From the IMG/VR virus record IMGVR_UViG_2061766007_000696: a stretch of DNA of 63,939 nucleotides. One strand, 5' to 3'. The notes under the pieces are model-generated. The model had not been told where the DNA came from. It saw only the letters and a list, made by a program, of their open reading frames with translations, and did no database searches. Made by a program: the position numbers and the translations under genes. The stretch comes from an uncultured virus (IMG/VR IMGVR_UViG_2061766007_000696). Its lineage: Duplodnaviria; Heunggongvirae; Uroviricota; Caudoviricetes. This document shows, one piece after another, positions 13,501-52,979 of this stretch; position 1 is the first letter of the stretch; every line of letters starts with the position of its first letter.

Positions 13501-16500
13501 TTGTGGCATCATCAGCAGCATTTGCTGCGTCGTTCATTCCATCAGCGGCTTTGCCAGCACCACCACCTGCTTTAGCATTATCATCAGCATTTCTTCTAGC
13601 TTTTGAACCTTCGTCATCTAAAGCATCACCATAAGATTTTGCAGCAGCAGTAGCATCATTAAATGCTTTCTTTTGTTGTTCATATTTTTTAGCAGTAGCA
13701 ATATCTCCACTTTGATAAGCTTGTTCAATTAAATGATTTACCTCAGAATTGAACGAACTTGCATCTGTTCCGTTAAGTAAATGTCTTAACGCATAGATTT
13801 CTTCTTTAGCAATACCAATTTGCTCACATAGCTCAATAAGCCAACTATAATCACCAGTTATACTAAGACCATTAGCAAGACCCATTTCTAAAACATATTC
13901 AATAAGATCTTGATTTGTTAAGCCTAACTGTTCAGCTTCATCCATTAAATAATCAACAGTTTCACTATGCTTTTTATTACTCTCATCAGCTGTTATATTA
14001 TATTCATGCTGAGCTTCAAGTTCATCAGCTAAAGATTGAGTTACTTTTTGTTCAGCTTCAGCTCTCAAAATAGAACTATTTATATATTGTTGAGCTACTT
14101 GTTCAGACATTCCTGCTTCTTGAAGTTGTGTCTGAATCATTTCTCTATTAGCAGCATTTATTTCTTCAAGAGGTACTTTTGATTTTAANNNNNNNNNNNN
14201 NNNNNNNNNNNNNNNNCATCAACACTTGATGTTGAGCTAGTAAGAATATTTTCGAAATTATCAAAATCAAAACCTTCAATATCTTTAGCTAATTCTCTAA
14301 ATTGTTCTACCTCAGTAATATCAAGATGAACTTTGTTTTCTTTTTCTACCTGTTCTCGCCATTTATCGTAAGCATCAGTAACTTTCTTTAAATCACCTAT
14401 AGAAGAGGCAAACGATTGTTGATTAAATTTTACTTCTGTTTCAATTTCAACTTTTTCTTGTTGAGCTTTTTTGATTTTCTCTTTTAAATCATCAAAGGAT
14501 TTTGCACTATCAACGAATTGATATGCTATTTCTAATTCTTCTTGAGATAAAGAATCAATATGGTCTTTTCCAAATTTAGATGTTAATTGTTGATATGCCT
14601 CAGATTCAACTAATTTTTCTTCTTTTAGTTTATCAATTACATATTGAATTGATACACCATATTTATCAGCTAATGCAATTAATTCATTGTATATTTGAAG
14701 TCTTTCATCACCTTCATCATATAATGAAGCATCAAAATTGATTAAATCTTCATATGAAAGAACATCATAATTTGCATCCTTAAACAATTCTATTTTATTA
14801 CGTAAATCATCTTGAAGATTATCTGTATTAGCTTTGAATTTTAAATCAAATTCCCATTGAGATACCTCAACAGCCAAATCAGGATATATATTTTTTAAAT
14901 ATTGTCGAACTTCATCATTATCAATATTTTTTAATGCTTCTAAATATATATTTGCATATTTTTCTAAAGCAGAATTTTTTTCCTCATCAGATTTAAATCC
15001 ATTATTAAATGCTTCTTTATATTGTTTACCTGCTTGAGTAACCTCATCAACTAACTTAGAATAATTTCCATTTTTTGAAATTAATTCATTTTCTACATAA
15101 TTTTGCCAAAAACCACCTTTATCCTCAATTAATTGATTTGTCTGATTAGCTACATCTGAAAGATAATTTTTTAAATCATCACTTGCACCTAGTTGTTCAG
15201 CTGCTTTTTGAATTTTAAGTAAATCTTTATAAAAAGCATCCCATGTATCCCCATATAAAACTAGAGATTTTTTGTCTTTATCGTAGTTATCTGCAAATGA
15301 TGAAATATTAATATCATCATATTGTTTTACTATTTTCTCAAGTAATTCAACATCTTCTTTTAAAAAGGATGTATTACCTAAATCTAATTTATTGGTAGTG
15401 GCAGAAATCATTTTATCTACTGCTTGTTCATATGGATTTTTGTTATTATTCCATAATTTATCAAACATAAATCCTAGATTTTCTATCCAATTATCAGAAT
15501 GAGGATTTTGCATTTGATTTTTAGTTTCTGCCCATTTCTTAGCAGATAATTCATCTAAAGCTGAAATTTGACCATTTATCGCTTTTGTAATATTAAATAT
15601 GGCTTCTTCCTCAGTACNNNNNNNNNNNNNNNNNNNNNNNNNNNNNNNNNNNNNNNNNNNNNNNNNNNNTCTCTAGCAATTTTACTATCTTCATAAGATG
15701 TATTATTATCAGATAAAATAGTCTGTAACTCTTTTATTTTTTCTTTATAACTGTCTATATCAGTTTTTGTCTCTCGATATGAAGTATTTAATTTTTTAGT
15801 TTCCTCATTCAACATTTTTGAGGCATTTGCACATGTAGTAAATAAAGAAATTAATTCACTTATAGCCCAAGTTACTGCCATAGTTGTAGCAACACTAGCT
15901 ATGGTCAATCCAAGAGATTTTAATGATGTACTTAAAATACCAGTAGCACTATTAGCTTTCTGCATACTAGCAACTATTTCATTACCAGATTTTCCTAACT
16001 TAATTTGTTCTTGAACATATAATCTTGTTGAATCACTTAAATCATCCATTGATTCTGAAAGTAAATCAGCAACTTTGGATTCATCATTTAATATGTCGAA
16101 GAAATTTGATACTAAATCAATTTCACTCTTTTTAAATGCGCCGCCAATTTTCTTGCCTAAAATAGAGGTGGAGAAGTTACCAAAAGAATCAATGTCAAAA
16201 TTAATTCCACCGCCTTTGAGTCCCATAAATGCACCAGCGGCTGCTGACAATATTCCTGGCAAACCATCAGCTGTTTCGACTATTTTATCTAGTACTTGAA
16301 GAATACTATTAGCACCTTCAACTACATCTTTAATAAAACCACTCTTGAGAGCATCATAAGCCAATTCTTCAAGAGAGGCTTTTANNNNNNNNNNNNNNNN
16401 NNNNNNNNNNNNNNNNNNNNNNNNNNNCTGATGCATCTTCAGCTGTTTTATATGCTGCTTCAAGAGTGTCTATATTATTAAGTACTGCGTATAGAGCGTT

Positions 16501-19500
16501 TGCATTCCTTTTCCCAGCTAATGCCTCACCTAATGATCATTTATATTTTATAAGTTCGTAACACTTATATTTAATTAAGATATTTTTTTAATTANNNNNN
16601 NNNNNNNNNNNNNNNNNNNNNNNNNNNNNNNNNNNNNNNNNNNNNNNNNNNNNNNNNNNNNNNNNNNNNNNNNNNNNNNNNNNNNNNNNNNNNNNNNNNN
16701 NNNNNNNNNNNNNNNNNNNNNNNNNNNNNNNNNNNNNNNNNNNNNNNNNNNNNNNNNNNNNNNNNNNNNNNNNNNNNNNNNNNNNNNNNNNNNNNNNNNN
16801 NNNNNNNNNNNNNNNNNNNNNNNNNNNNNNNNNNNNNNNNNNNNNNNNNNNNNNNNNNNNNNNNNNNNNNNNNNNNNNNNNNNNNNNNNNNNNNNNNNNN
16901 NNNNNNNNNNNNNNNNNNNNNNNNNNNNNNNNNNNNNNNNNNNNNNNNNNNNNNNNNNNNNNNNNNNNNNNNNNNNNNNNNNNNNNNNNNNNNNNNNNNN
17001 NNNNNNNNNNNNNNNNAAATGTTGTTCACCATCATATTCAATACAAACATTATTATTGGGTAAGTAAAAATCAAAAGGAAGTTCTCGTTTATCTTTACAA
17101 TCTTTAAAACGATATTGAGAAATAAAAGGAATATTTAGACTATTAAGAAAAGTAGTTATTGCTTTTTCGCCTTTATAAAAATGTTCACAATTAGGACATT
17201 GTTTACTTTGAGATTGTATCATAGACTGTGAATGAGATTCCCAAATATGTCCACAATTTAAACATTGAAATTTTGCATTCNNNNNNNNNNTCTTTTAATT
17301 TTTCTTCTAAATACCAAATAGGATAATTATGTCCCGTACAATATACACAACCAACTTTACATCTTTTCATATTATATTTCTGCATAAATTGTATTCCTAA
17401 ATCTTTATGTTTTGGACATATAAAATAAATCCCAATTTTACCTTTTTGTCTTCCTGAATCAATATATTCAAACCCTTTTGATTCACATAATAATTTATCT
17501 TCATCCTTATTTAATTCAACTACATGTGCTTGTTCTGTACGTTCTCTGCCACAATAATAACATCCATGTCCTACATTAAATTTCGTAACTTTTATTTCCT
17601 GAACACCTTTATCTCGATGTTTAGAACAAATATATTTAATTTTTGTATTTACATTTTGATATTCACTTTCTTTCGAAATTACCTCATAACCTTTTGAATT
17701 AAATCTTTTTACTATATCATCAAATGTATATTTACCCATTTATTACCTCTTTTATATCTTAATTAAACCCATACTTTCATATGGGATTAGACTATTTCTT
17801 CACCTTTTCTAAAAAAAAACAGAAGAAGGGCATACTTTTTCCATTTAATTGATTTTCACAAACTCCTTAACTTGAGCCGTACTCCTATTGATCTAAGTAT
17901 TCGGGATTTTCACCTTGATTTGATAACTCAAATGAGTATTCTTAGATCCCTACATGGGGATAGTCGTTGAACGTTTACCCTCGACTAATATTTCTTAATC
18001 AGAACATAACGTTAGGGTACTTCGCTGCATGAACCACCAATTCTTACGTTGTAAAACCATCATATAGTGATTTCTCCTATATTGTGGTGTAAGACTCTAA
18101 GGTTTTACCTGCAATTAAATATGTTCTTTAATATATATTTCTATATATTCAGGCAATCTTATTTGCCTGCTCTATATCAGTGAGATTTTTCCACTCTTTA
18201 CCAATACCTAATACTATTTCATAAATATCTTTAAAAGTATTTTCATCCTTCATGATATCAAAGCCAGTCATACCTTTAACCATATCACGAAGTTTTGAAG
18301 TACTCTCTACTATAGTTTCTTCTTCTTCACCCATTTCAATGAGTTCACTCTTCGCACCGCGTATACGTGCGCTCATAGTTTTCCACAATGTACCTACTGA
18401 TGTGGGNNNNNNNNNNGCCGTAATTAACGCAATAGATTTTGACAAATCAGTGTTTGCAGCATTAAAAGAAGCTGCTGAACGTTGAAGTGCCTCACCTATA
18501 CCCGCAGTATCAATTGCAAAGTTATTTGCTCGTTCTGTTACTATAAAATCGCAGATTTTATTATGACTTAAATTTATTTTAAGCGGATAGTTCTTTCGAG
18601 CTATCTCTCACGTTTCATATAAATAGGATTATTGCGTGAGTCCAGACTGTATATTCACCCTATTAAATAGGGGAGTAACTTCAGAATAATTGTTACCAAT
18701 CACTCCACCGCAGTCGTTACGCATTCTGTAGTAAAATACTTTCGATAATTTTCAATAGATTGAGATTGAAATGGTATTATTAGATTTGAATTAAGTTTTA
18801 ACTGATTAGTATATGACCAATTAAATGAATGATAATTCAGTAATTGATAATGATTATTTAAAGAGTCAATAAACTTAATGATTAATTCAACACAACAATA
18901 ATTGTTTTTAGCAATTAAGTATTCTCTTGTAAATTTATATATTTCTTTACCACACTTAGCACAAGTAGTTCGAATTTTTATATGTTTTCCTTTAATATTA
19001 AGATAATAATACAATTTAATAATGTCATCTAAAGATTTACCTATACTTGTAGCAATATCATTTAANNNNNNNNNNNNNNNNNNNNNNNNNNNNNNNNNNN
19101 NNNNNNNNNNNNNNNNNTGACGATCTAACCACATATCAACATTACATTTTGAAACTACAAAATTTGACTTTACTCGTCTATAATTCATATGTGTTTTTGG
19201 AATCATTTTATTACACGATTCACAAAATAGTAATCCATTATAATTATCAAATATTTCTTTTTTCATATTTTTACCACAGTCTTTGCTCGGTCTTATGTGT
19301 CCTATCACTATTTTAACCGATATAGTTACTATCATCCAGTATAAACTGAAGCATTTACATTACTGTAAATGGAGGCAAACTTTACCTCATTATATTTATC
19401 TATTACAGCTTCAGCATCATCAGCTGCAATATGAAAACCTTGCAACGTTGAAATTAAATAAGAACTTGCGTCATCAGCTGTCATATTATCACCAACAGTC

Positions 19501-22500
19501 GTGAAGAGGGCAGTAACTCTAGCAAGTTCCTCTGCATCATCTACCGAATAGCCTAGCCTTGACCAATCGGCAGTTACGTTAATTACATGTTCAATAGTCT
19601 GACCGAGTTCTTGTGCAGTCTTTGCAGACTTTTCAAAACTCTGTGCCAACCTATCATTACTTGCGTCAGATACCTTACGCAATTCAGTTATAGCAGTATC
19701 AAGAGCAATAACCTCTTGGCTTGCTTGTCTAATATATCTTATCCAATCCTGGATACTAAAATACTGAGCAATAAACTGAGCATTAACACNNNNNNNNNNN
19801 NNNNNNNNNNNNNNNNNNNNNNNNNNNNNNNNNNNNNNNNNNNNNNNNNNNNNNNNNNNNNNNNNNNNNNNNNNNNNNNNNNNNNNNNNNNNNNNNNNNN
19901 NNNNNNNNNNNNNNNNNNNNNNNNNNNNNNNNNNNNNNNNNNNNNNNNNNNNNNNNNNNNNNNNNNNNNNNNNNNNNNNNNNNNNNNNNNNNNNNNNNNN
20001 NNNNNNNCTCTTAGATAATTTATTTAAAGATGTTTGGGCAGCTTTTTTATTTGATGATAATCCTTTATCCCCTAAAATATTACTAATCTGATCATCTAAT
20101 TCTTTTAATTTAGCACGACCTTCTTCAGTATCAATATCAATAGGGGTTTTATTTATTTCAATAATCTTTTTTCGTAATTCATCTAATTGGTCAGTATAAG
20201 AATGTGTAAATTTTTTGCTATTAAGCATATCATCTATTTTTAACAGCGTTTTATCATACGAACCTTTTTTCTGAGATATAAAATCATCACCAGCATTATT
20301 TAAAAATCTTGCTTTAGCAGCATCAAGTTTTTCCAAGCTTTCAGCAGAACCATTAGCCCATCTTGTATATTCCTGAACACCTCTTGTTGCCTCATCCCAA
20401 GCTTGTTTAAGACCGGCTAATTCTTGTTTCTCCTCAGGCTTTACTAATTCCCCAGAATCCTCTTTAGTTAATAATTCATAATATCTACTTGCTTTGGCAT
20501 ATAACTCATCATATGCTTTTGTGGCAGATTTATTATCTGTACTTGCAGCATCTATATGACTTTTTCGCCAATCTTCATGTGCTTTTTGTTGAGCAGCAGC
20601 TGCCTCTTGAACAGCTTTAGCTTTTTCTTTTTCTGCCTTTGCTGCATCCTCAGCTAGGTATTTATTACGAATTTCTTCCTCATTCAAAGCTCGAATAGCA
20701 GTAACAGTTGCTAACTGTTCACGATTTGTCTTATATTCTGGCTGTGCAGCCATATATTTCATAAGATCCTCATAAACAGCTAATTCTTGTTTCTTTAAAC
20801 CAAGAATTTCACGAAGAGGTGTAGCCTCAGATTCAGATGCTTGACTAATTTTTCTTTCTAAATCAAGAATAGCAGTATCATCACTTATAATTTCTTTGAG
20901 TAATTTGTCATAATTAACATCATAAGTATCGAATCTTTCTAATTCTTTTTCTTTTGTTTCAGGATTAGTCACCATTCTATAAGATGTCTTTTGATTCATA
21001 ACTTTATTCAAAGCTTTTGTATAAGCGTTATGCCCCTCAAAAGTTCCATCCTCTTTTCTTATCCATCCACCATTTTCAAAGAAATCAATCTTAGCCTGAT
21101 GAGCACCACCCATAATATCTAAACCATTTAAATCCGTAAAGCTATTTTGCATATTACGAATTTCCTCGGCTGTTAATCTTGCTTGATTTTGAGTAGCCTC
21201 TAATTCATTACATAAATTATGAATAGCATCAGCATACAATCTAGGTTTTGTATTTTCATCAAGAACCTCTAAGTCCTCAAAATACTGTCCGTTTGAGGTT
21301 TGCTTTAATTGTCTCATTGAGCCAATTAATTCTTCATTTTCATCCTCAAGACTTTGTTCAGCTTGTTTTGCACGATTTGCACTGATAACCATATCTTCAT
21401 ACATTTCTTGTCCAGATACAGTTATATTGTTCTTAGGGGGTTTTGGCGGTTGATTAGGTGGGGTAGGAGGATTCATAGAACCACCTAACGCAGTCCTAAC
21501 AAAACTATCCATCGGCGTTGTATGAGTATCTAATCTGAATGCTCTTTCAACAATATCAGCCATAGTAAGAGCCTCAGATTCAACCTCACGTATAGCTTGA
21601 ACAGCCTTTTCTGATTCTTGTGAAATTTTGTGCACACCCTCAGAAACAATATTAGTAGTACTTTTAGCTGTTTCTTTTAAACTATTTAAATATTCATCAA
21701 TATATGCTAATTTATTTTGATCAGCAATTCCATTTTCATCCATAACTGGAATTTTAAATGCATTTTTACCTGTTAACTCAGCTATATATTTATTAAGAAT
21801 ATTAAAAGCATCAATTGCATCTAAAGAACCTTTTTTATAATCCTCAAGTATTTTTATTACACCAACATCTGATGTATTTATTTTTTCATCTAATCCATAT
21901 TGTACAAGATTAACAAGCTTTTCGACAGGTGTAAGAGCATCAGCTGAATTATCACGTATTTTAATTAGTGCTTTAGCTATTTCCTCTGTATTTGAAATAT
22001 CAAATGTTTGTAATCTATCACTTAATCCATGTTTATCTAATACTTGAGATAGAACTGGACTTAATAATTCTTTCTGTTTTTCTGTCTTAAGCGAGGAAAA
22101 ATCCATACCGTTTATTTTTGATTTTTTAACAGCATTTAAGCCTTTNNNNNNNNNNNNNNNNNNNNNNNTTCACAAATTTTTTTGTCTAATCCAGAAAAAT
22201 CAACAAGTTTAAATACTTGTTCAGATAATAAACCAAAAGACTTAAGACCATTTTCATAAAATCCTGATTCTGATAAACCTAACAAATCATCCCATGAAAA
22301 ATAATTTGAACCTTTAGAAACATGATTATGTATTGAGGTAGTTATTCCCTCATCAAGAGTATCTAATAAACTTTTATATAAAGATTGTTCATTTATAGCA
22401 TCAGAGAACATTCCATTTATATAACCAGTTAATCCATTTTTACCAAACTGAACACCATTTTCTAATTTATTAGATAACATCTTAGAAAATAATTCTGATA

Positions 22501-35158: not shown

Positions 35159-35717
35159 CTATAGGTAACTCCTTATTGATAATTTGCGGAACACCATTTT
35201 TAGTCTTAACGATATTACGGTCTGTTTCGCATTCAAAANNNNNNNNNNNNNNNNNNNNNNNTTATCCGTAATACTTGGCTTTGATTGTGAAATATGAATA
35301 CGACCACAAGATAATACTTTATAATCAAATGCATCTAATATTAATGCTGATAATAAATCATGTCTTGGAAGACTTGTTTCTTTATCAATGCAGTTTTTAG
35401 NNNNNNNNNNNNNNNNNNNNNNNNNNNNNNNNNNNNNNNNNTTAATTGGCTTTTCAGCATATCTATTTATTCTTTCAAAATTAGTTTCAAAACAAATAAA
35501 ATTTTGAACATCATGTTGAGTTGAATCAATCATAAAATAAGGTAGGATATTAACCCCAAAATAATCGTCAATTTCAGCATCCTCTTTTTCTAATTCTTTA
35601 TTATTTNNNNNNNNNNNNNNGAATTTCTTTTATTTCTTGTTTTAATTTTATATCATCACTATCAAGGGTATTTCGATAGGAGAGGAGTTTTTGTTTATCT
35701 TCTTTAGTCCATTCCAT
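35148..35717 (-). CDS. Head-tail/tail terminator-like protein (gapped)
   Basis: Hand reading MEWTKEDKQKLL...QNFICFE...RHDLLSALI...IINKELPIVEH across gaps. Confidence 0.55.
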
Positions 35718-35720
35718 AAC

Positions 35721-38700
35721 TTATACCCCCACTAATACAATATCTACACTGCCAGTTATTCCGTTATAAGAGGTATAGGAAACATGTAATGTTTCACCTA
35801 TATATTCATCACCACCAATGAATTTTATACGAAGCTGATTTTCCTCACACTCATCAATTGTAGAATCAATAAGAGTTGAAATATCAACATCATTAATAGA
35901 AAAGTCCCAAGTACCAGTATAGAAATCTATATATTCATCGTTTTTATAAAAAGTCACTGAAAATTTTTTATAATTACCACCAATTTTAATTTCTGGTTTT
36001 CCGGGATATGTAATTTCTAATCTGAATTTGGGAGTTTTTTCTTGATAATCTGATGGAATTAATCCATCAGCATAATAATCAGCATACATACCTTGAATAG
36101 AGGAGGGATCATTTTCATCTTCGTATTCAATATAATCTTTATGCTGATCAAATAAATCTTGTGCAAGAGTAGCAAGAATAACGCCATTTGAATTAATACG
36201 ATTTATCTTACTTATTTTCCATGCACGAGGTTCTGCACCATTAAGAACATCAACTTTATTATCTATAATCATTCGCTGATTATAATAAAGTTTTTCTGAC
36301 AAAGAGTTGGCTGGAACGAGGAACTTTTGCTGATCCTCGATGGAAGTTCAAATTTGTTACTCCTCAAAAAGAGGGGACAGGTCATTTCTGCCTATCTCTA
36401 CGGTTTCTTAATTCGATTATAGCCGTAGTTCAGACCATACCTTTCACTCAGAGAGTGAGATAGCATACTTTATATTGTTACCAATATAAATGTGGTCGTT
36501 GCGGGATTTATTTGAAAAATAAGAAATAACAGGATATAATATACTACGGACAGATACATATAGGTGAGGTGGTTGAGTCGCATCAGGATAGTGATATCCT
36601 GTTTATATAAAATCCCTCCATCTTAGGGAAATATACTAAGAAAGGAGGTGATAGAGTGACCCTAATAACATTTTTGTTTTCCATATTAGCAAGTTTAATT
36701 GCTAACTTTATTACATCTTATTTTTTAAGATTAATAGATAACAAAAATGACCACCAGTGCCATGGTGATCATTAGTGTATAATTATCTATGCTCTTATCA
36801 TCTCGGCTCAATCGCCTCGTATCTGTCTTTTATTTATTATATCATTTTTTCTTTATAAGTCAAATAATCTTACCCTCAGAATTGCCCATCTCTGGGGTTT
36901 CTCTGATTTGAGCTATCAGTTTACCTATATGTCACCATATAGGGAGACAATTTCTTATCTTATACAATTGTGTTACTTTATAAAGTCGTTAATTTTATAA
37001 AGAAAACTATATTGCACAATATAAATCTTCATAAATTTTATGTTTACGTTCNNNNNNNNNNNNNNNNNNNATAAATCCAATCTAAAAATCTTTTAACTTG
37101 TTTTCCACCTGCTATTTGTAAAGTTCTAGTTGATACATCTGTCTTATGATGACATAACATTATAGAACAATTTACGTCTAATTTTTCCTTCACAATTTCT
37201 GCTATCTTTTTACAAAAATTTTCAGTACTTACAAGTCTTGCTCGTTTTTCTCTAGGACTTTTACAAAGATTACCATCACCATCCATGTATCCTAATATAA
37301 ATGAATTANNNNNNNNNNNNGTTGGAAATTCTAATATTAAACTTTTATTTGGAAAAATACCATGAGATATCAAAGCATCATGAATATGAGTATTAGAAAT
37401 TGTTAAACAGTATTGATTACTCCAATTTGGATTCTTATCATGATATGGAATTAAAGTTAATTTATAATCACATTCTAAATCTTTTTTAAATTGTTCTAAT
37501 ATATAAACATCTTTTTCTTGTAAAGATATTTGAACTCGATTACTATTTTTACTTACTGTTCCATCGGCATATAACAATCCTAAATAATATGCTTTCCTAT
37601 GAGAATCAATGTTATCAAAATAATTTTCATTTATTATTTTTGTGCGTTTCTGTTCTGATTGAGTATAAATATGAATATTATTTTCTAACAATATTTTTTT
37701 TATTCTTTCAGATGTTATATGTAATTCCTCGCTTACTCGTTTTAAACTATGATATTTCTCATATAAAATAATAACTTCATTTTGATTTATATCTTTATTC
37801 ATACCTTATTTCCTCTAAAAATATGCATAAAAATAAAAGTCATAATTCTAAATGTTAGAGGCATTTAGAAAACGGTTTGCAACCCGCTGTCTGACTTTTA
37901 TTACTATTTACAATATGTTTTTTTCTTATGTTTTCACATAAGTTCTGACTATATCTTCACCCTTACAAAAGGGGTCGCCCATTTCGGCTACTTAGCCTAC
38001 ATAATAGTCGATGAACTTCATCCTATTCGGATTTTAGATGCTGATTATCCAATCTAATATTTTTTTAAACATTCACGCTTATGTTATTTCACCATTACGT
38101 TGTAGTATATTAGCTCTAAGGAACTTCCAGCAATTAAAGCGATTTTCTTATAACATTACTGCTATAAGGGACTATTTTACTAATCCGTCCAAACTCCACT
38201 CACTTTGTTATCCTAAAGGCTTTTTATCCTCTAGTTCTCATAGTCGCCTATGAGGTCAGCATATATCATCATCCGTTCTGGATGCCGGACACTCTTGGAG
38301 ATATTATATTTATTCAACCTCTATGCGTTACAATACTTATTAGCCAAGACTACACTATTATTCGAGAGTGCAAAGGTTTTTTAGTTCTATCCTCAAGAAC
38401 CAATATTTGTGCCTAGACCTTATTTATTGTCCGAGTCTAGTTAGACACGAATTCTTTGTCTTGCTATCTAATAAGTTATCACGGTATTATCTTAAGTAAG
38501 ACTTCACCGTTTTTGCCCAGTTTTCATCTATATATTCCTATATAGCGCAACCGTTTGATTGTAGGAATTTTGGGATCTTAAACAACCAGCCATTCTTATC
38601 TTTTTGCCATTCCATACCCAATCAAAAATCTTATCACAAGGTAATACTTCAAAAGTTGGAAACTGTGATACAAAATAATTTGCAGTACCAACAACTAACC

Positions 38701-39097
38701 AACGATTATAAATGCCTTTTTCATCTGGAATATCAATATATAATCCAACAGGAAAAATCGCATTATAACGATTTCCAAAATATTCCGAATAATAATCAAC
38801 ATTCATTTTTTGTGATGGTTTAAATTGAATATGATGAGTCACGACATCTTTATCAAAAGTTTGTGCAGAACTTCTTCGCCATTTTACGGTAATGGCCACC
38901 TTGTCAGGGTCTTTTTCAGGATGCAAGTCTTTAAGTCTCGTCTTACAATTATCATGCCAATAATCATAAAGATAACAAACACGAGTGTTTATATCCCCAT
39001 CAAAAGTAGCATCCATAATCATATCCGAATTATCTTTTCGAGCTTGTCCTAAAGTTTTAGAACCTAACATTTTTCTATAAGTATCAAGGGTTGGCAT
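35721..39097 (-). CDS. Head-tail joining-type virion protein split by three group I introns; exons 38558-39097, 38183-38200, 36957-36964, 35721-36348 (397 aa)
   Basis: Spliced reading ...LRSQNSYN/SGVWTD/YKI/TSIEDQQKFLVPANSLSEKLYYNQR; exon sum 1194 nt is in frame; function inferred from position. Confidence 0.85.
36512..36540 (+). promoter_or_regulatory. Sigma-A promoter of intron-nested toxin-like gene
   Basis: TTGAAA-17 nt-TATAAT. Confidence 0.75.
36656..36775 (+). CDS. Type I toxin-like membrane peptide, 39 aa, antisense inside intron
   Basis: AAAGGAGGTG RBS, GTG start, MTLITFLFSILASLIANFITSYFLRLIDNKNDHQCHGDH: one TM helix plus charged tail. Confidence 0.8.
   Translation: MTLITFLFSILASLIANFITSYFLRLIDNKNDHQCHGDH
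36742..36863 (-). ncRNA. Putative antisense antitoxin RNA (~90 nt) with its promoter
   Basis: TTGACT-16 nt-TATAAT (36863-36836); terminator ATGATCACC...GGTGGTCAT-TTTT overlapping the toxin 3' end. Confidence 0.65.
36965..38182 (-). ncRNA. Group I intron 2 of the head-tail gene (LAGLIDADG in P9 region)
   Basis: P1 GGAT/TAGTAAAATA GTCC; TAATTGCTGGAA, AATCAGCA, TTCATCGACTA, GAAGATATAGTCA; ends ...AACACAATTG. Confidence 0.9.
37007..37802 (-). CDS. LAGLIDADG homing endonuclease
   Basis: AYYLGLLYADG and FILGYMDGDG motifs; C-terminus ERKHKIYEDLYCAI after gap. Confidence 0.92.
38201..38557 (-). ncRNA. Group I intron 1 of the head-tail gene (no ORF, 357 nt)
   Basis: P1 CAAT/CAAACG GTTG; P4 ACGGT/ACCGT; variant P7 GCATA/TATGC; ends ...AACAAAGTG. 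Confidence 0.85.
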
Positions 39098-39451
39098 CAT
39101 CCACCTCCTTGATTTTTAAAACAGCGTTACCCGCATCAAGAATAAATTTTCTATACATACTCCAATTAAAATTAGGTTTTTTATATTCTATAAACGCCGC
39201 ATTAACCAAAGATATAACATCAACAAATTCTTGTGGATAACCCAACAAATCATTTAACCCACCAAAAGTATTTAATACATTTTGGAAAGTAGCTNNNNNN
39301 NNNNNNNNNNNNNNNNNNNNNNNNNNNNNNNNNNNNNNNNNNNNNNNNNNNNNNNNNCAACAATAAGAAGTAAAAAGAATATTTTTTTACGCATTTTTTC
39401 TTTAATCTCACTTACTTGTTTATTGGAGAATTCACCATATTTAAATTTCAT
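39084..39451 (-). CDS. Hypothetical morphogenesis protein (gapped; missed by ORF track)
   Basis: MKFKYGEFSNKQVSEIKEKMRKKIFFLLL...YRKFILDAGNAVLKIKEVDDANP; GGAGG RBS. Confidence 0.7.
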
Positions 39452-39896
39452 GATGTGATACCTCCCTCAAGATAAGAGTTTTCNNNNNNNNNNNNNNNNN
39501 NNNNNNNNNNNNNNNNNATTCTTTTAACTGAGATAAATGATTCGCTTGTGCAAACCATTTTTGTTCCGCGCCACCAAAAAATTGTGCAGTATTTAATACA
39601 CTTCTTACCTGCTTATGTATCCATTCATATATCATCCATTTTCCAAGCATATGAGTTACAAACTCTTTATCAGCAATTTCATCACCAATACGTTTCATTT
39701 CAAACGTCATAGTTTGTACATCATCTGCAAGTTCGACAGAAGAGAAGAGTCTTCTGACATATGTTTCTGAAAGAGCTTTATGTAGATATTCTTGCATCAA
39801 TTCAGTAGCATCAGTAATACTAAGATTAACCAAATCGTAATCTGTAATATCACCAAGAAAACTACTAAATATGTCATCATATTTCAAAGAGGTCAA
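39441..39896 (-). CDS. Head-tail adaptor-like protein
   Basis: YDDIFSSFLGDITDY...FAQANHLSQL; AAGGAGGTG RBS; 3' end approximate. Confidence 0.65.
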   Translation of the reverse strand: MTSLKYDDIFSSFLGDITDYDLVNLSITDATELMQEYLHKALSETYVRRLFSSVELADDVQTMTFEMKRIGDEIADKEFVTHMLGKWMIYEWIHKQVRSVLNTAQFFGGAEQKWFAQANHLSQLKEXXXXXXXXXXXXKTLILREVSHHEI

Positions 39897-49226: not shown

Positions 49227-51261
49227 CTATTTTTTAATTAGTTTTGATGGGCGAATTTGAGATGTAAGTTTATCAAGAAGAGTATTATGAGAAACTTTAG
49301 GACGAGTCATAATTAGTTTTCGTCGTTCCTCGGCTAACGCGAATCCCATAAGCGCGGCAGTATAGGCACGATCATCATGCATTTTATTAGCTTTTTCAGC
49401 TACTAATTCAAAAGAATCTTTACCAGATTCTCTTTTTTTACGAACCATATTAACAAGTTCCTCTTTTAAAGCATCAATGTTATTTAATGCTAACTCATCC
49501 TGCCAATCTNNNNNNNNNNACTGACTGAATCTTACTCAATTCTTCTTTTATAGTTTCTTCTAATATTTCTTTTGGAAGATTCTTTTTTTTATATTTATCT
49601 TCAATACGCTTACGTTCTTTTTTTAATAATTCCTCATCTATATCAAATACAGTTAAATATCCTTTATTATCATAAGAGGATGTAAAGCTGATTTTATCTA
49701 AATTAAGCATTTCGATTAAAGATTCATACATTATAGATTTATATGCTGTTGGGGTCATTAAATGCACCTTATCAATAGCATTAGGAAATTCTTTAACATA
49801 ATCCTCAGAAAAAACTTTATCAATTAGTCCTCTATGAGTTATACCAGCTTTATCTGTCCAATCAGGCATAAGATAATCAGCAATATTTACACCACCACCA
49901 CCTGAACCAGCATCAATCCAAATACCAACAATATTTCCATAATTATCAGCACCACCGTTATAATCAAGAATAAGTTGTTTTAAATATTCAATCTGTTCAG
50001 GGGTTCTCATGGGACTTTTTATTTTTCTCCCAACATCAATAAGGTTGACACCATTAACTATTCTTGCTTTTTTATCAATAGTTCCATCAGGTAATATTTC
50101 ATCATAAAATTCTGCTACGAGAATAAATGAATTATCTCTTTGTCTTGCTGGATCATAAAATAATCCAAATTTTTTATCACCTGTGTCATTATATAAAAGA
50201 GGTTTTCTTACTTCCTCATTCCTAGTAATAACACCACGTTTTACAATAGCATCACTACCAGCCTCAGTTGTAAAAATACAATAATATTCTCTTCGAGCTT
50301 TTTCGGGATTTGTTCTCATTTCAGATTCTACAGTTGAACGAGATAAAAGAGGAGTAATAAGTTCTCCTTTAAGAGTAGGTTTAAAAGCTAATTCACAATC
50401 AATATGAAGAACACAATAATCTGGATCGCCCATTAATTGCCTTTTAGCAAAATCTCTATATAATGCATAAAATTTTGTATCAGTACTACTTGCAGAACTA
50501 ATATAAAATTTTTGATTAGGAATTTCTGTAGCAAATGTTCTTTGTCTAATAGGGTCAATAGAATGGCCATTAGCATCTTTACCAGTTTTTAGACTTTTAT
50601 TTACAATTGCAAAAGCAGAATATACATTCATCATTTCTTCTGAAAGGAATCCACTTTCGTCAAAAATAACAGAACCACGAGCGCCGCGTTTGCGATCTAT
50701 ATTACTATTGAGCGTCTGACAGAAAGACCCATTATAAGTAGAAAATTTAAAGCCATTAGAACTATGGCTAAATCCATCACCAACAGCATTATTTATTACA
50801 ATTTCATCTTTAAACAATTTACCAGTAGAACCTGCAAATGTATCAATATTATCATTTGCAATTTTTTCTAAAGTCATAAAAGTTTGTTCTGCTTGTGAAC
50901 CACTTCCACTAGCAATATAAGCCCAATAATTACAAAATAAACTTTCTTTACTCATTAGTTCAATATCAATAACAGTACTTTTTCCCCAACCACGAGTTGC
51001 TACTATAAGTACATTTGGACAAATCCAAGAACGCTGAATAGCTAAAGTCTGAGAATCAAGAAGTTCAATATTATACATTAAATCAATCCATTTTAAAGGA
51101 TTACATTGAAAATATCGTTGCATTTCAGAAATAGCTAAAAGAGATTCTATTTTTTTATTAGACATAGGATAATTAATAGGTTTTACAAAAATACCATAAT
51201 CATGATAAAAATCTTTATCATATGGTAAATCCATATCATTCGGTAGAAGAATCTGACTCAT
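49227..51261 (-). CDS. Terminase large subunit (YonF-like)
   Basis: Walker A ATRGWGKST, Walker B VIFDESG, ISSA motif, nuclease YDPAR...IDAGSGGGG...HDDRAYT; two ORFs joined over 10-N gap. Confidence 0.92.
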
Positions 51262-52492
51262 TTTCGTCATTTTCCTCACTTTCAATATCACCAAATATAG
51301 AATATATATCTTTTAAATTTTCATATTCTACATCTGGTTTAATATCTTTTTCCTCAAGAAAATCTTTTAAATCAAGATTTTCGCGTAATAATATCCTATT
51401 AATTTCTTTATATTGATCTCTTTCTTTTCTAATTCTTTGATTATCTACACGCATTTCAGCTACCATATCTGACCATTCAGATTCATCAAGTGCAAGTTGT
51501 TTCATTATCGAGGCATCACTAATTTCTTGAACTTGTTGCATACCTCGACATGTTGCAATATCAAAACCATTTACTTGAGAATTTCTTAAATTTAAGTCTC
51601 TGATTCGTTTAATTTTACCAGTCCAGGTATTTTCACCTTTAATAGAATGTTTACTATTTTTTAGAGACAAACAACTTTCGGCTGCTAAATCTCTTATAGT
51701 ATGCATAATATCTGATTTACTAGATTGTAATGATTTGATAGTTGCAGAATTTTTTTCAAGTTTAGTTAAATCCCCCATTAAAGATGCAATAGTATCATCT
51801 ATTTTAGAGGCTTGTAAAAATCCTCTTGCAATACTAATAGCAGAGGAAGTACGAATCATATCTTCATTAGCCTCCTCACTTGAATCTAATAATGCAAGTA
51901 ATTGTGCATATAAAAAAGGCTGGTCAGATAATGACTCTCTTTCAAATGGATCATAATTTAATAATCTAATAACATCTGCTTTATTTTTTAAATAACTATC
52001 ATAACTATCTTGTCCCTGATGTGAATCAATAATATCTTGTTCCGTTAATTCATCATCATATATAATTTTTTCTTTATACATATCAGAATCCAAAAAAGTC
52101 ATACCAACATATTGAATCATTTGAATATTTTTTATATAACAAGCCCAAACACTATTTTGAGGTTTTCCAGTTACTAAANNNNNNNNNNNNGCATTCCAAA
52201 CAGTATTTAAAAAAGGTTTATCTAATAATTTTAATGCAGCTATTACACTATCTTTTGTAGGTTCATGATCCTCACCATTTTTATCTCTACGACATGCTAT
52301 TGATTTTGCACAATCTCTACAAATACGTGAAAAACTACTACCACCTAACATCGGATTAGTGTCATAATAAAATTTAGAATCTTGATCTTTTACTTTCCCA
52401 CACATTGCACATCTACAACCTGTATCAAGTATTTTATGTAATTGTTCATTTTCTTTTCTTGTTTCGGCTATTGGCTGCTTTTTTGCAGTCAT
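51236..52492 (-). CDS. Zinc-finger protein upstream of terminase (YonG position, possible small subunit)
   Basis: CAMCGK...ICRDC, LDKPF; overlaps TerL start; true start at or just upstream of 52492. Confidence 0.7.
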   Translation of the reverse strand: MTAKKQPIAETRKENEQLHKILDTGCRCAMCGKVKDQDSKFYYDTNPMLGGSSFSRICRDCAKSIACRRDKNGEDHEPTKDSVIAALKLLDKPFLNTVWNXXXXXLVTGKPQNSVWACYIKNIQMIQYVGMTFLDSDMYKEKIIYDDELTEQDIIDSHQGQDSYDSYLKNKADVIRLLNYDPFERESLSDQPFLYAQLLALLDSSEEANEDMIRTSSAISIARGFLQASKIDDTIASLMGDLTKLEKNSATIKSLQSSKSDIMHTIRDLAAESCLSLKNSKHSIKGENTWTGKIKRIRDLNLRNSQVNGFDIATCRGMQQVQEISDASIMKQLALDESEWSDMVAEMRVDNQRIRKERDQYKEINRILLRENLDLKDFLEEKDIKPDVEYENLKDIYSIFGDIESEENDENESDSSTE

Positions 52493-52544
52493 TTTTTTTN
52501 NNNNNNNNNNNNNNNNNNNNNNNNNNNNNNNNATCAAAAAATAA

Positions 52545-52620
52545 TAGCAGTTCAAGGAGTCGAACCTTGTATCACAAAGGGTATGAACCTTGTATGGTAA
52601 TTCCGTTCCACTCAACTGCG
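52545..52620 (-). tRNA. tRNA with CAT anticodon (Met/fMet/Ile2 unresolved), slightly irregular
   Basis: GCAGTT/AACTGC acceptor, AAGG-TTCATAC-CCTT anticodon arm, CAAGG-TTCGACT-CCTTG T arm; no encoded CCA. Confidence 0.75.
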
Positions 52621-52626
52621 ATATAA

Positions 52627-52707
52627 CGGGGAAGCTGTGATTTGAACACAGGCTATATTGACATGCGTTAACAGCGCACCGCTCTAACCGAACTGAGCTA
52701 CATCCCC
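52627..52707 (-). tRNA. tRNA-Asn(GTT) with enlarged variable region
   Basis: GGGGATG/CTTCCCC, GCTC-AGTTCGGTTA-GAGC, GTGCG-CTGTTAA-CGCAT, CTGTG-TTCAAAT-CACAG. Confidence 0.85.
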
Positions 52708-52908
52708 TCATTTTTTCCATATCCTCGAAATCTGCGAGTCTGTTGGAGGTACGCATTTAGGTCTATGGCTAATAGTTGCCCAAATTTCACTTAGTACCAC
52801 ATATAGAAAAAAGACTATTCTCTATTAATCTATAAAGTGCGCACTTTACAAACTAACATTTGTTATGCGTCCATAACATGAATGCGGAATAATAGACATT
52901 CATTTCAA

Positions 52909-52979
52909 AGCTTCTCACAGGACTCGAACCTGCAACCCTCTGATTACAATCAGATGCACAACCAATTGTGCTAAGAAGC
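52909..52979 (-). tRNA. tRNA-Thr(TGT)-like, anticodon loop one base short (possible pseudo-tRNA)
   Basis: GCAC-AATTGGTT-GTGC, TCTGA-TTGTAA-TCAGA, GCAGG-TTCGAGT-CCTGT. Confidence 0.7.

Follow-up and report, generated by a model that had tools for sequence, protein, structure and literature searches.

A type I toxin-antitoxin-like cassette nested in a group I intron of a rumen phage

Introduction

Group I introns of bacteria and phages carry homing endonucleases or IS605-type transposases (IStrons), or are coupled to riboswitches, and in the introns of T4 the ORFs are carried in P6-type loops. The signature of type I toxin loci is the pairing of the SD sequence and the start codon, together with closure of the 5' end of the mRNA onto its 3' end and an antisense RNA that overlaps the 3' part and has its own terminator. 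In Fst/par (RNA I-RNA II) of the Enterococcus plasmid pAD1 and in txpA/RatA and bsrG/SR4 of Bacillus, transcription is convergent, the leader hides the RBS, and the antisense RNA covers the 3' part of the mRNA.

IStrons, such as CdISt1, are group I introns fused to an IS605-type element, where splicing renders the insertion harmless (PMC3984707). An intron lacking an ORF can also have an insertion site in common with an endonuclease whose gene lies elsewhere, which is known as collaborative homing; toxin-antitoxin cargo is not mentioned in this 2014 review of bacterial group I introns (PMC3984707). The type I toxin-antitoxin modules of C. difficile prophages (CD0977.1-RCd11 and relatives) are formed by a convergent toxin mRNA and antisense RNA, encode a small hydrophobic peptide, and reside on temperate phages (PMC7699646).

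Here we analyze a stretch of DNA of 63,939 nucleotides from an uncultured virus (IMG/VR record IMGVR_UViG_2061766007_000696), further called the window. It comes from a rumen phage, and the interrupted gene considered below is a structural (virion-module) gene. An intron of this gene had been predicted to hold, in its P6 loop, a type I toxin-antitoxin-like module instead of a homing endonuclease. This observation holds, and the arrangement is more than chance. The original prediction knew of no described example of such nesting; our full-text literature searches likewise found no toxin-antitoxin cassette nested in a group I intron.

Results

The interrupted gene

The gene encodes a virion-module protein of ~398 amino acids and is split by three tandem introns within 26 coding bases (Table 1). 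With the three introns removed, the 398-aa frame aligns without gaps to seven intronless homologues; T is the last base of each 5' exon, and G that of each of the three introns. The PHROG match of exon 1 spans just positions 2-136 of the 244 positions of the profile, and homologues that are ~400 aa at full length match residues 1-183. Relatives of intron 1 are found at the identical site in three loci (L090, L105, L109), and intron 2 has numerous relatives at the same insertion site. The ORF of intron 2 is similar to LAGLIDADG_3 from Pfam (E 6.7e-11) and to the endonuclease family phrog_4645 (E 8.7e-48). In a metagenome contig that also contains intron 3 (L150), exon 3 is contiguous with exon 2.

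A group II intron in the 5' portion of the 2.2-kb gap was weighed and rejected because group I R and S elements and micro-exons are present. Comparison of two exon products with the phage collection by tblastn yielded no match, and megablast of the region 35600-39200 yielded two short matches only, both within intron 1. The gene is an intron hot-spot, and the original prediction had missed that intron 3 is the third of three introns in tandem.

Table 1. Features of the interrupted gene, intron 3 and its cargo (positions in the window)
Feature	Position	Strand	Description	Basis
Exon 1	38558..39100	-	residues 1-181; phrog_5251-like	ORF list, PHROG
Intron 1	38201..38557	-	357 nt, without ORF	splice model
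Exon 2	38183..38200	-	18 nt, codes for SGVWTD	frame scan, homologue alignment
Intron 2	36965..38182	-	1218 nt	
Intron 2, R-like element	about 38016-38002	-		
Intron 2, S element	37957-37947	-		exact S-element match
Intron 2, LAGLIDADG homing-endonuclease ORF	37044-37802	-		Pfam, PHROG
Exon 3	36957..36964	-	8-nt micro-exon; restores the frame and residues Y-K-(I) of homologues	
Intron 3	36349..36956	-	608 nt; 264 nt minus cargo	
Exon 4	35721..36348	-	residues 191-398	
IGS GTCT	36948-36945	-		hand model
P2	36943-36924	-		hand model
P3	36917-36912 / 36464-36459	-		hand model
P4	36906-36901 / 36881-36876	-		hand model
P5	36896-36885	-		hand model
P6	36875-36860 / 36515-36503	-		hand model
P7	36497-36493 / 36437-36433	-		hand model
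Extra hairpin	36490-36469	-		hand model
P8	36458-36444	-		hand model
P9	36429-36398	-		hand model
Last base of intron 3, G	36349	-		hand model
Cargo, type I toxin-antitoxin-like cassette	36516..36859	both	344 bp in P6 loop	inverted repeat, family alignment, blastn
Imperfect inverted repeat bounding the cargo	arms 36508-36557 / 36819-36867		repeats I1 and I2	
Promoter of peptide mRNA, TTGAAA-17-TATAAT	36512..36540	+	11/12 match	counterpart in every family row
Predicted peptide mRNA	36547..36838	+	~290 nt; ends predicted	fold, RNA-library contig
Start codon pairing partner	36578-36582	+		predicted helix
Leader stem-loop	36584-36601	+		
Anti-SD TCCCTCC	36613-36619	+	paired to SD	
SD/RBS AAAGGAGGTG	36641-36650	+	paired to anti-SD	
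39-aa peptide ORF, GTG start	36656..36775	+	hydrophobic helix, then polar charged tail	
Promoter of antisense RNA, TTGACT-16-TATAAT, TG ahead	36836..36863	-	11/12 match	
Predicted antisense RNA	36738..36829	-	~90 nt; ends predicted	
Antisense terminator-like hairpin, then T run	36773-36746	-		

Structure of intron 3

The predicted splice borders of intron 3 proved correct: T at 36957 ends the 5' exon, G at 36349 ends the intron, and the joined frame is open. Its description as a group I intron that itself lacks an endonuclease gene is supported as well. The P3-P9 model of the intron was built by hand, with the P elements following in the canonical order; comparative support is available for P7 and P9 only, since no close relatives of the intron 3 core were found that could provide it for P3, P4, P5 and P8.

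In particular, P7 covaries, being GACCA/TGGTC in the window, GACTA/TAGTC in an intron of Brochothrix phage A9 and in L146, and GACTG/CAGTC in L147, and the P9 stems differ among these four introns yet stay paired. The IGS can pair with AGAT of exon 3, a U-G pair included, and it is kept in L150, although five adjoining loop bases differ there. In a fold of the core minus the cargo (264 nt left), P4, P5 and P6 all form in the stretch from P4 to P6, and the cargo lies in the final loop. The predicted closing stem of P6 is present (GATTATTTGA at 36869-36860 and TCAAATAAATC at 36515-36505), and the fold supports the location of the cargo in a hairpin at the P6 position.

The proposed check with a group I covariance model gave a negative result: Rfam Intron_gpI (RF00028) matched none of introns 1-3, either at the gathering score or at E<=10, so that intron 3 was not picked up. 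Among the controls, the related introns of phage A9 scored 40.4 and 28.4 bits (the latter, from the ribonucleotide-reductase gene, with E 3.4e-4), below the gathering score of 50, while L146 had E 4.3 and L147 had no match. Given these low control scores, RF00028 is weak for such introns, and it cannot bridge the 344-nt insert. Rfam scans of the window and of the region 35500-39500 revealed no known antitoxin RNA; a match to frnS with E 0.52 was taken as chance, and scans of two other suspected intron regions gave nothing useful.

Alleles with and without intron 3

Intron 3 is a precisely bounded, optional intron. In the public DNA run X5, the joint 36342>36955 skips 612 bases and has four letters between its sides, and the net loss of 608 bases is exactly intron 3. 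Another joint of the same run, 36348>38559, contains 27 letters between its sides, which code, on the - strand, for residues of exon 2 and exon 3, and therefore represents a fully intronless allele. The record from run X3 fits an allele with intron 3 alone. Alleles bearing and lacking intron 3 occur together in one metagenome (X5), and thus loss and gain of the intron do happen. Several joints with short sides (~21 letters) were ascribed to other introns or organisms and left out.

Misassembly, which the original prediction had named as a danger, can be excluded, because contigs from three further public DNA runs, as well as a metagenome contig, share the junctions of the cassette inside the intron. 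The occurrences of intron 3 observed in this study (n=5) are those in the window, L150, X3, X5 and X8, and the cassette is present in 5/5 of these independent occurrences.

A search of related phages for the intron with and without the insert had been suggested; the intron with the insert was found, while the insert-free intron was not found in the scans. The joint 36515/36860, corresponding to the intron without cargo, is absent among the joints listed for four runs. The search of IMG/VR for cargo-free intron 3 with a 20-nt P5 pattern gave only a chance match in GC-rich coding sequence (L145), and the search with a pattern of the 3' domain retrieved A9 itself and two other introns (three loci), whose cores are unrelated. 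The metagenome scan for cargo-free intron 3 returned one contig, with the cargo present. Moreover, neither intron 3 nor the cassette is found in any of 21 interrupted homologue loci.

Anatomy of the cassette

All cassette elements named in the original prediction are in place (Table 1). Eight sites with 11/12 promoter matches exist in the whole 63.9-kb window, four on each strand, and two of them form the convergent pair, while promoter-like sites in the 2.5-kb region are not above the number expected from shuffled sequences (12 vs 14.2). The predicted mRNA (MFE -95.6 kcal/mol, z -7.9) has a 5'-3' closing helix, and the anti-SD/SD and start-codon helices are both predicted from the fold of the window mRNA and from the family alignment, with compensatory changes. 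According to this folding model, translation of the toxin mRNA is likely blocked. The complementarity between the predicted antisense RNA and the peptide mRNA extends over the final 13 codons and the 3' UTR of the latter.

With respect to the host gene, the terminator of the antisense RNA (hairpin and TTTTTG) has the sense orientation. An efficient terminator there should stop late transcription short of exon 4, a cost yet to be explained.

The peptide from the window matches the NCBIfam model CD_typeI_toxin with E 9.4e-5 and 22.7 bits, compared to the cut-off of 60 (residues 3-33 aligned), and phrog_738 with E 3e-4, while the control peptide from phiMMP01 scores 78.8 bits with the NCBIfam model and has E 1.2e-28 with phrog_738. 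No match to the window peptide was found in Pfam. An Atlas feature search pointed to an Fst cluster (0.87, 174 shared features), which may serve as a lead only.

Family of cassettes

By blastn, the cassette belongs to a family with 49 further loci; the layout is shared by 48/49 pattern matches from IMG/VR and by MT835469. In 49/49 family loci, an ORF of 33-42 aa is kept along with its GTG start and RBS, and dN/dS of the peptide is 0.09-0.33 among closer family members. Such substitution patterns indicate that the family peptide is under purifying selection.

The family alignment (A2, 20 distinct sequences) was analyzed by RNAalifold, which predicted the 5'-3' helix, the leader hairpin, the anti-SD/SD helix, and the start-codon helix. 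Compensatory changes are observed at 23 of 67 pairs, and in the leader hairpin three pairs have 3, 5 and 8 double changes. The extended -10 of the antisense promoter is retained at a conserved distance in 17/20 distinct family sequences, and the antisense hairpin with the CAAAAA/TTTTTG run in 20/20 rows. The original claim that the cassette is anatomically a complete type I toxin-antitoxin locus of the Firmicute type is backed by the conserved family, by this covariation, and by the RNA contig described below.

Most family peptides match no family model, or do so only with E>0.01; for NCBIfam Fst, family members have E 0.85-1.7. The RNA of the cassette matched no family in Rfam, and literature searches found no toxicity or antitoxin experiment for this cassette family.

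The family members are free-standing and belong to temperate gut phages and prophages, often residing beside a prophage integrase gene. In particular, a tyrosine integrase gene is convergent with the cassette in two of the loci (L008 and L016) and in a contig of the Coprococcus chromosome. This contig is the only true member among 34 matches from a scan of the genome collection with the family pattern; the other 33 were rejected as chance, since the features of the RBS and terminator are absent. With these loci, the type I-like cassettes of Lachnospiraceae-type prophages emerge as a family that had no name so far. No integrase was seen in the 64-kb window, and therefore a temperate lifestyle of this phage is suggested by an anti-repressor-like ORF only.

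RNA contig

One 281-nt contig from the metatranscriptome run X20 covers positions 36558-36838 with no differences and is confined to the cassette, while the exons and the remainder of intron 3 are not covered by any contig of this run. The contig is strandless and comes from one run of one study, and absence elsewhere does not imply silence. It could derive from DNA carry-over or from an identical cassette in another context.

Spread of the intron with its cassette

Between the window and L150, 16/159 positions are changed in the exon, all changes being synonymous, compared to 13/608 in the intron with the cassette and 4/344 in the cassette alone (Fisher p = 3e-5), and the two are identical throughout the ORF, 3' UTR and antisense promoter. 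The divergence of the intron with its cassette is thus ~2%, while that of the adjoining exon is 10%, which argues for recent mobility rather than mere retention. Judging from these comparisons, the intron and the cassette appear to spread together as one unit. The composite was found in bovine and other animal gut metagenomes from many studies.

Intron 2, with its LAGLIDADG endonuclease, ends 8 bases upstream of intron 3, and another LAGLIDADG intron adjoins intron 3 in L150. With such an intron 8 bases away, co-conversion or in-trans help of the endonuclease is available.

Discussion

Intron 3 is probably a real, recently mobile, endonuclease-less group I intron with an enlarged P6 hairpin, into which a whole, self-contained type I toxin-antitoxin-like cassette has been built; the family of this cassette is otherwise free-standing in temperate gut phages and prophages. 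In this cassette, host-type promoters would produce the + strand mRNA of ~290 nt, which would be kept untranslated by the 5'-3' closing helix and the pairing of the RBS and start codon. The convergent antisense RNA of ~90 nt would pair perfectly with the 3' end of the mRNA, while the 5' arm of the mRNA is predicted to pair with its own 3' end via G-U wobbles only, and hence the antisense RNA should win the competition for this end. By analogy with other 3'-overlapping Firmicute systems, the bound antisense RNA may block or destroy the mRNA, and, once the antisense RNA is exhausted, the putative toxin peptide would cause membrane damage.

In the intron RNA, the inverted-repeat ends of the cassette would fold into a long rod atop P6, so that the ribozyme core should stay undisturbed and the host gene should survive the insertion. 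The intron loop may be both a safe harbour and a vehicle for the cassette. As the family normally resides beside prophage integrases, the benefit more likely goes to the whole phage or lysogen, and the cassette most likely serves in maintenance or exclusion, as its integrase-adjacent relatives would. The intron itself most likely spreads via recombination of flanking exons or via an endonuclease acting in trans, e.g. that of the neighbouring LAGLIDADG intron.

It is unlikely that the cassette, instead of being an addiction-type system, is a gene for a small membrane peptide under cis-antisense regulation, encoding either a superinfection-exclusion or abortive-infection moron or a holin-like peptide for lysis timing. 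A single-helix peptide with weak similarity to type I toxins would suit such a function, and it would be in line with host-type promoters of its own and with the presence of the cassette in an RNA library without late genes. Lysis is also suggested by matches of family members to a holin PHROG and by an endolysin-like gene adjoining the cassette in one locus (L002), but these matches (E 0.056-0.13) are far from significant, and the usual neighbour is an integrase, not lysis genes. Moreover, a paired SD and start codon, 5'-3' closure of the mRNA, and a 3'-overlapping antisense RNA that has a terminator of its own are jointly what marks type I toxin loci.

Rather improbable, too, is that the cassette works for the intron, as the original prediction proposed. 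In such a case, loss of the intron would remove the short-lived antisense RNA, the stable toxin mRNA would persist and the cell would die, so that an intron without an endonuclease would be retained or driven, and the pre-mRNA or excised intron would be a second antitoxin in late transcription. Consistent with this, intron 3 contains no endonuclease ORF, has the cassette in each of its five observed occurrences (with no 36515/36860 joint among those listed), and is by construction antisense, in its own strand, to the entire toxin mRNA, and alleles with and without it coexist in X5. However, alleles lacking intron 3 persist in nature, and a conventional route of mobility is at hand, given the LAGLIDADG introns beside intron 3 both in the window and in L150. 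The low divergence of the intron with its cassette, compared to 10% in the exon, reflects active lateral movement, which addiction alone does not supply, and the family outside introns resides beside integrases, where the whole prophage would be stabilised. We similarly doubt that the intron has swapped a homing-endonuclease strategy for a toxin-antitoxin one, its loss being lethal to the lysogen and its RNA doubling as an antitoxin.

Finally, the imperfect inverted repeat around the insert and the abundance of promoter-like sites in AT-rich DNA (12 vs 14.2 expected in the region) could suggest an inert passenger or decaying relic, that is, a miniature inverted-repeat insertion with a chance ORF and promoters tolerated in a peripheral intron loop, but this is very improbable given the ORF, RBS and GTG intact in 49/49 loci, dN/dS well below 1 among closer members, compensatory changes in four helices, the unchanged ORF, 3' UTR and antisense promoter in L150, and the RNA-library contig.

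With the type I-like cassette in the P6 hairpin of a mobile intron as the preferred reading, two RNA systems of classic selfish or regulatory kind are nested, where the ribozyme would make the insertion harmless, and the promoter-bearing toxin and antisense unit would be expressed from the opposite strand. The composite is a concrete system for asking whether an intron can persist without an endonuclease, whether intron RNA can cross-talk with an antisense-regulated gene, and how a ribozyme tolerates a head-on promoter and an internal terminator. If the cassette did addict the phage to the intron, self-splicing introns would have a novel means of persisting and of riding between phages.

Compared to known systems, the cassette resembles the modules of C. 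difficile in its peptide helix, which matches both models of that group (NF047374, phrog_738) weakly, while its tail, unlike that of the C. difficile toxins, is not lysine-rich (PMC7699646). The C. difficile modules are intergenic, not intronic, and the word "intron" is absent from their description (PMC7699646). As in Fst/par, txpA/RatA and bsrG/SR4, the cassette is predicted to have convergent transcription, a leader hiding the RBS and an antisense RNA at the 3' part of the mRNA, but its long 5'-3' closing helix, the 3' arm of which is the antisense target, cannot be assigned to any of these three systems.

As for the intron, its 3' domain (from the P9 region to the final G) shares 88% identity, over 49 nt, with that of the ribonucleotide-reductase intron of Brochothrix phage A9, with covariation in P7 and P9. 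The A9 intron resides in another host gene, has a length of ~320 nt and no cargo, and its remainder could not be aligned by blastn. Like IStrons, intron 3 is a composite selfish element with cargo other than a homing endonuclease; the cargo of IStrons is a transposase at the 3' end of the intron, which gives mobility, while in intron 3 it is an opposite-strand, promoter-bearing unit of peptide and predicted antisense RNA in P6, giving no known mobility. Finally, as in endonuclease-bearing phage group I introns, the cargo is placed in a peripheral loop, and a LAGLIDADG intron lies 8 bases away, but the cargo itself, unlike theirs, is not a nuclease.

Host gene with three tandem introns

The match of the ORF at 39100..38528 (minus strand) to phrog_5251 is confined to the first half of the profile, and relatives of the ORF among 1.8 billion representative proteins searched are mostly about 400 aa long, matching it across residues 1-183. 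The second half of the gene is located 2.2 kb downstream, and a frame scan of this gap identified two short coding pieces, one encoding the conserved SGVWTD and the other, completed by the opening base of exon 4, encoding the next three conserved residues (exons 2 and 3 in the table). The four pieces joined form an open frame of 1197 nt, and its product is aligned without gaps to seven intronless homologues. Each 5' exon has T as its last base, and each intervening sequence closes with G, preceded by a tail of the GTAACA...TTG type common to all three. The host gene therefore contains three tandem introns inside 26 coding bases, and the gap-free alignment confirms the splice borders of intron 3 originally predicted.

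Coordinates of the host gene, the cassette and other features of the window
Feature	Position	Strand	Description
Exon 1	39100-38558	-	
Intron 1	38557-38201	-	357 nt, without ORF
Exon 2	38200-38183	-	18 nt
Intron 2	38182-36965	-	1218 nt, LAGLIDADG endonuclease ORF 37802-37044
Exon 3	36964-36957	-	8 nt
Intron 3	36956-36349	-	608 nt, borders identical to the original prediction
Exon 4	36348-35721	-	
Cassette arm	36869-36860		GATTATTTGA
Cassette	36516-36859		344 bp
Cassette arm	36515-36505		TCAAATAAATC
Predicted mRNA of the cassette	36547-36840	+	-95.6 kcal/mol, z = -7.9
Antisense terminator-like hairpin and T run	36773-36746	-	
Region of the IS605/TnpB-type transposase ORF and S element	5278-6756	-	phrog_506, E 1.6e-133
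Exact group I S-element match	6746-6756		AAGATATAGTC
Tape-measure-like pieces	15576-16463, 19332-22106	-	
HNH endonuclease ORF	16575-17222		
S-like element	17790-17800		
tRNA genes	52627-52707, 52909-52979	-	
Long ORF call	51236-52756		

Insertions at residues ~179-197 are present in 21 of the 80 IMG/VR loci encoding homologues, many of the interrupted ones holding relatives of introns 1 and 2, and this site is an intron hot-spot. The short exons 2 and 3 separate introns that are each independently present or absent in natural alleles (public DNA runs X5 and X3 and the metagenome contig L150). The target of the LAGLIDADG enzyme would probably be disrupted by neighbouring introns at distances of 8 and 18 bases from the intron-2 site, which suggests competition among introns for one hot-spot. 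A contig of DNA run X8 (38103-39150 of the window) shows that this gene has one more insertion site: another phage carries an intron with a core like the 5' part of intron 2 near 38741/38742, within exon 1 and some 180 bases farther upstream.

Group I features of intron 3

The Rfam group I model, the check suggested with the original prediction, yields no match to any of the three introns even at E<=10. As a control, two ribonucleotide-reductase introns of Brochothrix phage A9 score 40.4 and 28.4 bits, given the gathering score of 50, and of two further relatives one has E 4.3 and the other no score; the model is thus weak for this intron class. Intron 3 shows 88% identity to the second A9 intron over its final 49 nt. 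P7 is formed here by the S-like element AAGGTATGGTC and an R-like element with GACCA, and the other three of the four introns that have this 3' domain in common show GACTA/TAGTC or GACTG/CAGTC, so that P7 covaries; P9 stems of the four introns differ in sequence with pairing kept. The order in the hand model read from the sequence is canonical (guide GTCT, P2, P3, P4, P5, P6, P7, extra hairpin, P3', P8, P7', P9, final G), comparative support coming from P7 and P9 and the remaining helices from sequence and folding. The extra hairpin between P7 and P3' is taken by us to suggest subgroup IA.

Intron 3 without its cargo is 264 nt long, and in this cargo-less core the P3-P7 stretch is predicted to fold into P4-P5 and a terminal hairpin, the loop of which is the place of the cargo. 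By position this hairpin is P6, as had been proposed. No close relatives of the intron 3 core were found in the homologue loci, in IMG/VR pattern scans or in the metagenome scan.

Natural alleles and mobility

Contigs of four public runs were mapped to 35700-39150. One X5 contig jumps 36343-36954 with 4 other letters between, the net loss of 608 corresponding to intron 3, and keeps intron 2; a second contig of this run links 36348 with 38559 through 27 intervening letters, which encode the residues of exons 2 and 3 on the minus strand, and represents a fully intronless allele. Such alleles from nature corroborate the intron borders. An X3 contig joins exon 1 to 36948, and the number of letters at this joint is, by calculation, the number required for the end of exon 1, for exons 2 and 3 and for 8 bases at the start of the intron; this would fit an allele with intron 3 alone.

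The cassette lies inside intron 3 in contigs of X3 (36438-36911, 1 difference), X5 (36310-36846, 4 differences) and X8 (35700-36948, 97 differences), and likewise in L150. Misassembly, which according to the original prediction would refute it, is therefore excluded.

L150 is 96.1% identical to window 36964-36190, with zero indels. Exon 4 differs at 16 of 159 bases, and each difference is synonymous (none of 52 residues is altered); the intron with its cassette differs at 13 of 608, five of these differences being clustered in the P1 loop; 4 differences fall within the 344 bp of the cassette and none in its ORF, 3' UTR or antisense promoter. This uneven distribution (Fisher p = 3e-5) indicates that the two phages are old relatives having a young intron and cassette in common. 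In L150 another LAGLIDADG intron, located at site 1 or close to it, is the neighbour, exons 2 and 3 being contiguous, and in X3 intron 3 appears to be alone; since the neighbours vary in this way, intron 3 seems to move independently of any single one. Taken together, intron 3 is a group I intron that has exact borders, is optional and has spread recently. Its candidate routes of spread are an endonuclease acting in trans (collaborative homing, as described in PMC3984707), co-conversion with a neighbouring intron, and plain recombination in the highly conserved flanks.

The suggested search for the intron with and without its insert gave one side of the comparison: the cargo is present in 5 of 5 intron 3 cases seen, and the cassette is found in none of the 21 interrupted homologues.

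Phage and distribution

The window is AT-rich (32% G+C), and 47 of its 49 largest non-overlapping ORFs (>=100 aa) are on the minus strand. Virion and lysis genes (terminase, portal, prohead protease, tape measure, tail fibres, endolysin) are accompanied by several homing-endonuclease-like ORFs and an IS605/TnpB-type transposase; this gene content identifies the window as the structural arm of a large tailed phage with heavy colonisation by selfish elements. Region 36250-37040 was found, in whole or in part, in 20 public runs from 14 studies, labelled as bovine gut or gut metagenomes; in 13 of the 20, half or more of the sampled words are present, and 2 entries may be the source sample.

Just upstream of the TnpB-type ORF there is an exact group I S-element match, and the region, located between two tail genes, may be an IStron-like composite; an Rfam scan around this ORF gave zero intron matches and a weak Ref70 sRNA-like match (5148-5268, E 0.029). 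The HNH endonuclease ORF and an S-like element lie between two tape-measure-like pieces, and this region (15576-22106) is probably another intron-split gene; an Rfam scan of the suspected intron region gave zero matches. Two tRNA genes are inside or adjoining a long ORF call, which is probably wrong in part.

Structure and expression of the cassette

Every element listed in the original prediction, from the two promoters to the antisense terminator, is present in the 344 bp between the arms. Only eight sites in the entire window reach 11 of 12 matches to the sigma-70 consensus, and two of them are the convergent cassette pair. In the predicted mRNA the 5' and 3' ends are paired by a helix of ~25 bp, and a leader hairpin is also predicted, as are pairing of CCTCC with GGAGG of the ribosome-binding site and a helix between the GTG start region and 36578-36582. 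The second promoter would give a minus-strand RNA of ~90 nt with an 11-bp hairpin followed by a T run at its end, and this RNA would overlap the 3' UTR and the final 13 codons of the peptide mRNA. In the window, the mRNA 5' arm differs from the complement of the 3' arm by transitions giving G-U pairs. The antisense RNA is perfectly complementary, as opposed to the 5' arm with its G-U pairs, and so should displace the latter. At the sequence level, the P6-position cargo shows all the hallmarks of a type I toxin-antitoxin locus.

The metatranscriptome X20 is the sole RNA library among the 20 runs, and ten of its contigs were mapped. Nine are short pieces of intron 1 and 2 cores, 90-99% identical, probably from other organisms. 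The tenth, of 281 nt (36558-36838), has 0 differences to the window and no loose ends and falls between the two predicted transcription starts; neither the exons nor the remainder of intron 3 is represented by an X20 contig. An autonomous cassette transcript with late genes off would look like this contig, which is unstranded and comes from one run of one study, and it may also derive from DNA carry-over or from an identical cassette elsewhere.

Cassette family

A blastn match to an unannotated gut-phage record was followed by a pattern scan of IMG/VR. The entire layout is common to this record and 48 of the 49 scan matches, and all 49 family loci retain the ribosome-binding site and a 33-42 aa ORF starting with GTG, giving nine distinct peptides that align with the window peptide along the helix and the Y..R..D..KND[RH] tail. 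dN/dS is 0.09-0.33 among closer members and 0.42-0.70 in comparison with the window peptide, the latter being near saturation. RNAalifold predicts the same four helices for 20 distinct sequences, with compensatory changes in 23 of 67 pairs; leader hairpin pairs show 3, 5 and 8 double changes, and several are seen in the 5'-3' helix. An extended -10 box is present on the antisense strand in 17 of the 20 sequences, its spacing to the antisense T run being constant. Peptide and RNA structure are conserved at the family level.

The window peptide matches the C. difficile type I toxin models weakly, NF047374 with E 9.4e-5 and 22.7 bits, below the cut-off of 60, and phrog_738 with E 3e-4; family members mostly have no match at all, and a feature search places an Fst cluster at 0.87, a lead only. 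The type I architecture of the original prediction (promoters, folds, antisense terminator) holds, and the cassette appears to work like a type I toxin-antitoxin locus outside any curated family.

This so far unnamed family (peptide ...YLVRFFD.HKNDRH...; loci L008, L016 and L176) occurs in large human-gut phage contigs and a Coprococcus ammoniilyticus prophage, and in 48 of the 49 loci the K-N-D-R-H codons double as the stem of the antisense terminator. The other family members are outside introns, in intergenic positions; those in L008 and L016 are convergent with a tyrosine integrase, as is the one in the cultured C. ammoniilyticus chromosome, the only true member among 34 matches in the genome collection, and an endolysin-like gene adjoins one member. 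A place next to the integrase is where modules for prophage maintenance or exclusion are usually found.

Possible role of the cassette

In the proposed mechanism, the mRNA would be held closed and untranslated, and the antisense RNA would take the 3' arm, the mRNA then being blocked or destroyed; on decay of the antisense RNA the peptide would harm the membrane. In the intron RNA the inverted-repeat ends of the cassette are predicted to fold into a rod on P6, so the ribozyme would be left undisturbed.

We consider it rather probable that the cassette is a phage- or lysogen-level module, for which the intron loop serves as safe harbour and vehicle. The original prediction, in which the cassette retains intron 3 by addiction, is logically coherent for a lysogen, but ordinary mobility routes are at hand, making it unlikely. 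Nesting arguably has a cost, since the late transcript must read through the antisense hairpin and TTTTTG to reach exon 4 and the toxin promoter fires head-on into late transcription. The antisense terminator is on the sense strand of the host gene and, if efficient, would end the late transcript before exon 4.

In line with the original prediction, full-text literature searches (subscription-only papers being outside their scope) gave, among the papers listed, no toxin-antitoxin locus nested in a group I intron. A 2014 review of bacterial group I introns lists, in the passages covered, endonucleases, IStrons and a riboswitch as partners and has no words starting with "toxin". Both parts are known, and the combination appears to be new. 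PMC7699646 describes C. difficile prophages that are stabilised by type I modules in convergent arrangement.
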